From Centroscyllium fabricii (lineage: Eukaryota): a stretch of DNA of 64,000 bases. The position numbers and the translations under genes are program-made. Location of the stretch: NCBI GenBank assembly GCA_051313645.2, contig JBNRSN020000001.1, forward strand, positions 387,128,001 through 387,192,000, given 5' to 3'. A model generated the notes under the pieces. The model ran no database searches and was not told the DNA's origin. It was given only the letters and a program-made list of their open reading frames with translations. Positions 761-1,963 of the stretch are shown piece by piece (positions within the stretch are counted from its first letter, which is position 1; every line of letters starts with the position of its first letter).

Positions 761-978
761 GGGGGCGGTGGAGGCCAGTTCATTAAATGTATTTAAGAGG
801 GAGTTGGATGTATTTCTTCGGGCTGGGGGGATTGGGGGTTGCGGGGAGGGGGAGGTGCTGAACTTGAAAGATCAGCCATAATCTCAGCCAAGATCAGCCA
901 TGGTCTCGTTGAGTGGTGGAGCGGGCTCGGGGGGCCGAGTGGCCTACTCCTGCTCCTATCTTCTATGTTTCGATGTTT
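761..978 (+). mobile_element. CR1-type LINE 3' end (ORF2 C-terminus + 3' tail), A-to-G hypermutated copy
   Basis: Aligns by eye to the 3' end of the intact CR1 at 54731-54944 (AVEASSLNVFKRELD; ...CCTACTCCTGCTCCTATCTTCTATG tail), with roughly 25 A>G differences. Confidence 0.9.
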
Positions 979-1616
979 AACCGCCTGCTGCACCTGCATG
1001 CTTACCTTCAGCGACTGGTGTACAAGGACACCCAGGTCTCGTTGCACTTTCCCTTCTCCCAATCTATTGCTGTTCAGGTAATAATTTGCCTTCCTGTTTT
1101 TGCCACCAAAGTGGATAACCTTGCATTTATCCACATTATATTGCATCTGCCCAATCACCCAACCTATGCAAATCATACTGGGGTTTCTCTGCATCCTCAC
1201 AGCACACACCCACCCAGCTTTGTCATCTGCAAACTTGTAGATATTACATCTACTTCCCTTGTTTAGATAATTAAAATATATTGTGAATAGCTGGGGTTCT
1301 AGGACCGATCCCTGCGGTACCCCACTAGTCACTGCCTGCTACTCTGAAGAAGACTGTTTATCCCAATCCCATGTGCCTTAACTTTAAACGCTAATCTCTT
1401 ATGCGGGACCTTATCGAAGGCCTTCTGAAAGTCCAAATACACCACGTTCTCCCTGATCTATTCTACCAGTTACATCCTCAAAAAATTCCAGTAGATTAGT
1501 CAAGCACGATTTACCTTTTGTAAATCCATGTTGACTTTCTGATCCTGTCACTGTTTTCCAAGTGCTCTGATACTGCATCTTTTATAATGGACTCTAGCAT
1601 TTTCCCCACTACTGAT
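979..1616 (-). mobile_element. CR1 LINE ORF2 reverse-transcriptase fragment (degenerate)
   Basis: Translation SGVPQGSVL.PQLFTIY...KFADD...YNVDKCKVIHFG...QRDLGVLVHQSLK matches the RT of the CR1 at 52214-54839; contains frameshifts and deletions. Confidence 0.9.
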
Positions 1617-1963
1617 GGGTGGCGCGGTGGCGTGGTGCTTGGCGCTGTTGCCTTGCGGCACTGGGGACCCGGGTTCGAATCCGGCCTCGGGTACTATCTG
1701 GAGTTTTCTCCCCGTGTCTGCGTGGGTTTCCTCCGGGTGCACCGGTTTCCTACCGCGGTCCGGGGATGTGCGGGTTGGGTTGATTGGCCATGATGGGTTG
1801 GCCCTTGGTGTTGGGGGGGTTGGGTATGTGGGGTTGCGGGGATTGAGGGATGTGAGGGCGGGGCGGGGATGGGGTGCTGGGTTTGGGTGGTCGGCCGTGG
1901 TCTTGTTGAGTGGCGGGGCGGACTCGGGGGGCCGAGTGGCCGCCTCCTGCTCCTATCTTCTAT
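1617..1963 (+). mobile_element. tRNA-derived V-SINE (HE1-like) with CR1-derived tail, A-to-G hypermutated copy
   Basis: A/B-box head (GGTTCGAATCC), V-domain TCTCCCCGTGTCTGCGTGGGTTTCCTCCGGGTGC and CR1 tail; colinear with the copy at 23919-24312. Confidence 0.9.

Follow-up and report, generated by a model that had tools for sequence, protein, structure and literature searches.

Dense one-strand A>G changes in a CR1 and SINE block of a shark genome: a candidate retro-copy of edited RNA

A>G hypermutated proviruses of the avian leukosis type carry ADAR-type edits that were fixed in integrated DNA after reverse transcription. Among genomic elements, APOBEC-hypermutated copies are known for LTR elements, according to the text available from PMC4866542 and PMC2873906, and the screen in the former focused on LTRs, as far as its available text goes. 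The accessible part of PMC5625713 describes hyper-edited RNA as abundant in elephant shark brain and as arising, across animals, mostly from inverted repeats. Edited sites show an enrichment of G alleles. In the text available from PMC7186786 this is explained by selection, and in that of PMC10209271 by a direct mechanism. The write-back of A-to-I edits into animal genomes is an open question. Our literature search, which took in few subscription papers, found no report of ADAR-type hyper-edited genomic copies of SINEs or LINEs, and this is a weak negative.

Layout of the block and its surroundings

We analyzed a 64-kb stretch of Centroscyllium fabricii DNA, called the window below. Self-comparison of the window resolved the block at 761 to 1963 into three repeat parts, and the reference for all DNA comparisons was the other repeat copies inside the window. 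The features are as follows.

755 to 760, plus strand: left TATTTT, a candidate target-site duplication that closes a 12-nt pure A/T run (749 to 760)
761 to 978, plus strand: E1, the 5'-truncated 3' end of a CR1 LINE, A>G hyper-substituted from its second base
856 to 901, plus strand: unedited patch of E1 with a tandem duplication of 22 nt (a 12-nt repeat, at 868 to 879 and 890 to 901)
979 to 1616, minus strand: middle piece, an antisense fragment of the CR1 ORF2 reverse transcriptase (RT), unedited and lacking its own 3' end
1617 to 1963, plus strand: full-length SINE with a tRNA-like head and a CR1-derived 3' tail, A>G at 70% of A
1886 to 1963, plus strand: CR1-type 3' tail of the SINE, with a stem-loop predicted after editing; the putative priming end
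1961 to 1966, plus strand: right TATTTT, a candidate target-site duplication with a 5/6 match to the start of the tail repeat (3' microhomology)
1967 to 2522, minus strand: an older unedited LINE 3' end, antisense and outside the block; the putative target

E1 contains the last ~33 codons of ORF2, the 3' UTR, and two tail repeats. Its 22-nt duplication is private, and other copies lack it. The middle piece has its counterpart in the RT region of a CR1 copy at 53548 to 54271, in the opposite orientation. No part of 1 to 760 matched any other part of the window.

The SINE was judged full length against a window copy at about 23914 to 24310. A B-box-like motif was seen by eye at 1672 to 1682. ARAGORN called 0 tRNA genes, and Rfam gave no tRNA match (2 chance-level matches). 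The SINE resembles the HE1 V-SINE. Its tail type is shared with CR1, since the 24-kb copy is 82% identical over 24154 to 24315 to the CR1 end at 54777 to 54933. At 23867 to 23923, before that comparison SINE, its 5' end is repeated in inverted, head-to-head orientation, which makes a fold-back junction. The comparison SINE also holds 37 nt (24116 to 24153) that are missing from the block SINE and that resemble a second tail type at 6068 to 6142 and 9242 to 9316. The subfamily of this SINE may have arisen as a chimera by tail swapping.

We take the LINE source of E1, the middle piece, and the tail to belong to the CR1 clade. The source element has an ORF2 with endonuclease and RT, a short 3' UTR, and tandem tail repeats. 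Its ORF2 copy at 52140 to 54839 is an 899-residue stop-free frame with Exo_endo_phos_2 and RVT_1 domains, and the copy is young or well kept. The best named relatives of the last 200 residues are from skate, ray, and shark (65 to 77% identity), and bird proteins are near 47%. Two CR1 copies in this region (52216 to 53825 and 55789 to 57383) form a 1.6-kb inverted pair, 77% alike and about 2 kb apart. The pair is a potential double-stranded RNA and shows no A>G excess. A frame at 54940 to 55328, directly after the CR1 tail, resembles an integrase end, presumably of Gypsy type. The CR1 was probably inserted into the remnant of an LTR element.

A class III POU gene lies on the minus strand at 17251 to 18405, about 15.3 kb from the block, in agreement with the distance of about 15 kb downstream of the gene given in the initial annotation. 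We take the gene to be POU3F2, and an exact-sequence look-up of its protein gave no match. Relative to the gene, the edited strand runs antisense, and it lies 15 kb past the stop. The proximity looks incidental, and we saw no sign of a role for the gene. The stretch just upstream of the gene, at 18681 to 20122, holds GA-rich repeats and N gaps, the assembly being a draft with gaps. Elsewhere in the window are endonuclease-RT frames on the minus strand at 59593 to 63483, from one element in two pieces that is presumably Tx1/L1-like. At 6814 to 7319, a 20-nt unit is repeated in tandem 25 times with a 97% match. Scattered 12-, 18-, and 30-nt repeats at 21479 to 29311 have a hexamer rhythm, which suggests a low-complexity coding or satellite region.

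A one-strand A>G signature in E1 and the SINE

The initial annotation described two hyper-edited plus-strand elements, and substitution counts bore this out. Compared with the long CR1 end at 54731 to 54925, E1 has A>G at 26 of 59 reference A, 4 G>A, and T>C at 0 of 43. The SINE, whose body could be compared with one copy only (at 23914 to 24303), has A>G at 47 of 67 reference A, 3 G>A, and T>C at 0 of 90. Because CpG decay in the reference is possible at CpA sites, we dropped these sites in a retest. The asymmetry held in E1 (A>G 21/45 versus 0/32 for the mirror change, p=1e-6) and in the SINE (30/47 versus 0/56, p=3e-14). The absence of T>C rules out strand-symmetric processes.

The direction of change could be polarised in the 72-nt tail common to E1 and the SINE, with the ancestral base taken from three other copies. 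At its 15 A sites, G stands at 7 in E1 and at 10 in the SINE, and at 1, 0, and 0 in the other copies. The protein level agrees. A Y>C change in E1 falls on a tyrosine that is kept in 26 of 26 close homologues reaching the end of ORF2, and four K/R sites that are G in E1 are G in 0, 0, 0, and 1 of these 26. The homologues are those among 120 listed proteins that passed a filter of 60% identity and end coverage.

The middle piece is different. The initial annotation proposed a check of 979 to 1616 for plus-strand A>G excess, and we found none. Its changes relative to the CR1 at 53548 to 54271 are symmetric (A>G 14, G>A 17, T>C 24, C>T 29), and a three-way comparison gave G at 2 of 52 A. Pooled, E1 and the SINE have A>G at 73 of 126 A versus 14 of 143 in the middle piece (p=1e-17). 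None of seven control repeat pairs in the window showed A>G/G>A asymmetry (p 0.18 to 1.0). In one of them, 52216 to 53825 compared with 55789 to 57383, T>C exceeded C>T (53 versus 30) diffusely.

Sequence context mattered as well. An A that follows G was edited at 15 of 40 sites versus 58 of 81 otherwise (p=4e-4 pooled; p=0.051 in E1 and 0.003 in the SINE). A 3' G was preferred weakly (31/42 versus 42/79, p=0.03). Both biases match the ADAR motif given in the available text of PMC4365171, in which G is depleted 5' and enriched 3' of the edited A, and the text available from PMC2873906 likewise has the 5'-G depletion. The changes in E1 are uneven: 10 of 11 A are edited at 821 to 850, and 16 A are left in the 46 nt of the patch at 856 to 901 versus 5 in 805 to 855 and 3 in 902 to 945. 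The patch may have been looped out of an RNA duplex. Among 2410 N-free 200-nt windows, A/(A+G) is lowest in the SINE (0.12), and E1 ranks only tenth among non-overlapping windows.

The SINE also shows the marks of later life as DNA. C>T is found at 4 of 30 CpG C and at 0 of 44 other C (p=0.024). All four changes are at CpG, as expected of later decay in DNA. Three of them appear as CA>TG relative to the comparison copy; the one at 1904 is polarised as ancestral CA, and another may be ancestral CpG. The extent of CpG decay is alike in E1 (1/8) and the SINE (4/29), these being tiny numbers. The SINE has 27 CpGs, and the comparison SINE has 15.

Could the changes have arisen without RNA editing? 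A G-rich subfamily, GC-biased conversion, polymerase-eta-type mutation, APOBEC-edited comparison copies, or an assembly error might be proposed, and we consider this group most unlikely. All 7 tail changes of E1 are nested among the 10 of the SINE (p=0.019), as a shared G-rich ancestor would give. The same nesting would also arise if a single enzyme worked on a single sequence. Edits are found both in the region specific to CR1 and in that specific to the SINE, and A is set as the ancestral base by the three other copies and the 26 proteins. The mutation motif of polymerase eta is WA, and here CpA was edited about as often as ApA (22/28 and 20/26). GC-biased conversion and APOBEC are rejected on the substitution counts; with only 4 and 3 G>A changes, E1 and the SINE, both non-LTR elements, do not carry the sense-strand G>A cluster of APOBEC.

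An assembly error draws on the N gaps of the draft and on the read data. Four public sequencing runs (2 samples, 1 study), which may include the source of the assembly, contain 0.76 to 0.79 of 425 words from 1 to 4000. The ceiling would be 0.69 if the whole block were absent and 0.85 if the edited parts were absent. The runs exceed the first value and stay under the second, so part of the block is present in them, and the edited letters are without independent confirmation. The other 17 run rows, with shares of 0.05 to 0.18, have no evidential value, and none of the 21 run matches listed was an RNA run. Against an error, the later CpG decay fits real DNA.

The dense one-strand A>G in E1 and the SINE is thus confirmed as an ADAR-pattern signature, and we infer ADAR as the enzyme. 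Very probably, ADAR-edited RNA was reverse-transcribed into the germ line here, a claim common to the donor, stepwise, and template-jumping models discussed below.

Boundaries and origin of the block

The initial annotation stated that the antisense RT fragment continues on neither side of the block and that the block begins abruptly within CR1. Both statements stood. In six tests, neither flank scored beyond shuffles as an extension of the middle piece or of the CR1 in E1; the positive control of the procedure scored 364 against a shuffle maximum of 115. CR1 homology breaks off at 761, where the flank score is 28 and the shuffle mean 29. A CR1 insertion normally retains its 3' end, and about 660 bp of the CR1 3' end is missing from the middle piece. 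The exact end of the block at a CR1-type tail needed refinement: the tail is CR1-derived, and it stops within the first terminal repeat. Both internal junctions lie on natural RNA ends, the CR1 tail at 978 and the SINE start at 1617.

Two features of target-primed insertion are seen, namely, the 5' truncation and a 3' end at the tail with microhomology. The block lies in or at the A-rich tail of the old antisense LINE. The right TATTTT overlaps the SINE tail, and its 5/6 match to the tail repeat is as expected from zebrafish L2, for which the available text of PMC2666801 reports 3' microhomology in about 80% of copies. The edited SINE tail is predicted to fold into a hairpin (minimum free energy, -34.9 kcal/mol) that is no more stable than shuffles (z -0.77) and therefore gives no evidence of retained recognition. 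As a side observation, one G>A at 1922 and an adjacent TA>GC at 1942 to 1943 both lengthen this hairpin. They look templated from the other arm after editing, and they are two events only.

A 6-nt duplication round the whole block, unlisted in the initial annotation, points to one unit. TATTTT at 755 to 760 and 1961 to 1966 is the longest boundary match for the whole block. The matches are shorter for E1 (3 nt), E1 plus middle piece (2), middle piece (1), middle piece plus SINE (4), and SINE (2). A 6-nt match was found at 105 of 5000 and 126 of 5000 random boundaries (about 2%) and at 100 of 895 T-rich and 491 of 2549 AT-rich composition-matched boundaries (11 to 19%). CR1 targets may be biased to T- or AT-rich sites, and as evidence for one unit the duplication is weak. 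Round the comparison SINE at 23.9 kb, duplicated sequence is no longer than 3 nt, so the lack of a duplication round the sub-parts means little. The flanks also fit a single A/T-rich LINE tail split by the block, with the left flank as the far end; A/T runs of 11 or more stand before 350 of 60767 positions, and the left flank has 12. This fit partly repeats the evidence from the duplication and does not count as a separate line. A duplication of the old antisense LINE itself, sought between the left flank and its far end, had no support (longest matches, 7 nt).

Our preferred reading, with a probability of about 0.5, has the block as the retro-copy of a single read-through RNA. This RNA would have come from a donor locus, and its copying would have been primed at the SINE tail and broken off early at 761. 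At the donor, insertions of a CR1 and a SINE would have landed in an old antisense CR1 copy, so that a CR1 end, the antisense RT piece, and a SINE followed one another. Polymerase II may have made a long transcript across this locus. The SINE and the CR1 end would have paired with inverted copies elsewhere in this RNA, and the rarer RT region and the private duplication of E1 would have had no pairing partner. ADAR would have deaminated 44 to 70% of A in the paired parts, the share that we observed. CR1 ORF2 may then have recognised the SINE tail inside the RNA and primed at a T-rich site in the A-tail of the old LINE, using the 5/6 microhomology. The copying of 1.2 kb, with inosine read as G and a stop inside E1, would have left the 6-nt duplication. 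The copy would have aged as methylated DNA, with some edit-made CpG turning into TpG, a step that the C>T changes partly show. The product is dead sequence, and we propose no function for it.

This donor model needs ordinary steps only. It accounts for the foreign sequence 5' of a full-length edited SINE and for both missing continuations of the middle piece, which are as expected if they were left at the donor, where one would lie downstream of the priming site and the other upstream of the truncation. Editing up to the second base of the block implies that the RNA was longer. The initial annotation had likewise taken the whole block for one retroposed chimeric transcript. The signature, the unedited middle, and the missing continuations favor that view, and its single-transcript part depends on parsimony and the short AT-rich duplication.

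Some points stand against the donor model. A long donor CR1 should have paired with the antisense RT piece, and the RT piece is unedited. CR1 is also strict in template choice, according to the available text of PMC5470649, and here it would have primed inside a long, inosine-rich RNA. Searched for the tail motif, three microbial or viral collections (contigs from viruses, metagenomes, and genomes) yielded 0 loci. A CR1 protein scan of metagenomes gave 49 loci at 40 to 64% identity, none with a nucleotide match to E1 or the tails. Neither kind of scan yielded anything usable on a donor.

The three parts might instead have been built up stepwise on site, the antisense CR1 piece, the edited CR1 end, and the edited SINE each inserting separately. 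Each edited element would have been edited in its own RNA, and deletions would have taken the continuations of the middle piece; a variant has the middle piece and SINE first and E1 later. Nested insertions are common in the window, and matches of 4 nt round the middle piece plus SINE and of 3 nt round E1 would suit this order. The middle piece is also richer in deletions, with 9 gap events in 637 columns versus 4 in 1595 between the two other CR1 copies (p=0.003) and with private deletions of 57, 11, and 8 nt, which suggests that it is older than or different from its neighbors; another repeat pair is similarly gapped (7 events in 365 columns). Long target-site deletions with L2 are reported for Ku70-deficient cells in the available text of PMC2666801. 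Even so, two rare edited insertions would have to land 640 bp apart on one strand in a window where 0 of 7 control pairs has the signature. About 660 bp, including the tail of the middle piece, would have to be lost exactly at E1. An end would also have to coincide with the start of the SINE, and the 6-nt duplication would have to be due to chance. We therefore regard stepwise assembly as unlikely.

Template jumping within a single insertion, from an edited SINE RNA to an antisense CR1 RNA fragment and on to an edited CR1 RNA tail, would require neither a three-part donor nor a read-through transcript. The duplication and the absent continuations follow from it just as readily, and the junctions fall at the 5' end of the SINE and at the 3' tail of the CR1. 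Template jumping would take two jumps and two independently hyper-edited templates. A short SINE RNA on its own is poorly suited to editing at a level of 70%. The deletions of the middle piece and the private duplication of E1 resemble those of decayed genomic copies, not of active RNAs. We think this course rather improbable, although template jumping is reported at zebrafish L2 5' junctions (unpublished data mentioned in the available text of PMC2666801). We also considered twin priming and rejected it. Twin priming would put the parts in the opposite order to the one here (sense tail, then antisense RT), and if E1 were inverted, T>C would be seen in it.

Finally, the edits might have been written back in place, by cDNA-mediated conversion from the edited transcript of the locus itself or by ADAR acting on an RNA:DNA hybrid. 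Both routes are raised as hypotheses in the text available from PMC10209271, and either would directly explain neighboring edited elements on one strand. However, no nearby inverted partner is present in the window. We found none for the SINE body, with the left flank visible for 760 bases only, and the sole one for E1 is 69 nt long and 51 kb off; a pairing partner would lie at the donor or left of base 1. A hybrid mechanism is not expected to skip the middle 638 nt or to start exactly at 762, and in-place conversion leaves the missing continuations and the duplication unexplained. We judge write-back in place to be highly unlikely.

Significance and comparison with known systems

Overall, the signature is strong and the chimera is moderately supported. 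The scope is one locus of dead repeats. Its 73 ADAR-pattern changes in a genomic copy make a concrete case of write-back by reverse transcription, at least for new insertions. The question also becomes countable, as clusters of sense-strand A>G in shark SINE and CR1 copies. Shark and ray genomes may, we suggest tentatively and at somewhat less than even odds, hold a class of fossil retro-copies of ADAR-hyper-edited transcripts, mobilised by CR1 via the SINE tail and carrying 5' flanks. If so, A-to-I edited RNA would have a functioning path back to DNA in the germ line, and such copies would form a datable record of past editing and of the double-stranded parts of RNA. Edited copies would look far older than their true age, gain CpGs, and escape repeat annotation. 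They would be an exception to the supposed inability of CR1 to move host transcripts. If the flank was indeed carried, CR1 can move arbitrary upstream sequence via a SINE tail.

The ADAR hyper-edited repeat RNA of Porath et al. has the same one-strand A>G, confinement to repeats, and 5' and 3' G bias, as far as the available text of PMC4365171 and PMC5625713 goes. There, RNA reads were compared with an unedited genome, whereas here the changes are genomic, with later CpG decay. The APOBEC DNA-edited LTR retroelements of Knisbacher and Levanon likewise integrated despite hypermutation and show a clustered one-type signature, according to the text available from PMC4866542. Their sense-strand G>A was made on cDNA; here the change is sense A>G, in non-LTR elements, and would have been made on RNA. 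The HE1 V-SINE and HER1 LINE of sharks and rays pair a tRNA-headed SINE with a LINE that shares its 3' tail, in the accessible part of PMC3747384; the SINE here likewise shares its tail with a LINE, and its head is tRNA-like. The likeness is one of description, and the table row available from that paper has no hyper-editing or carried flank. L1 3' transduction carries a flank with the element inside one duplication (available text of PMC5470649), as we propose for this block. Here, by contrast, the flank would be 5', the carrier a stringent-tail CR1/SINE without poly(A), the template edited, and the donor presumed. The 5' transduction of SVA is a comparable carriage of a flank. The A>G hypermutated proviruses are somatic or cell-culture retroviruses, whereas the copies described here are germ-line SINE and LINE copies.
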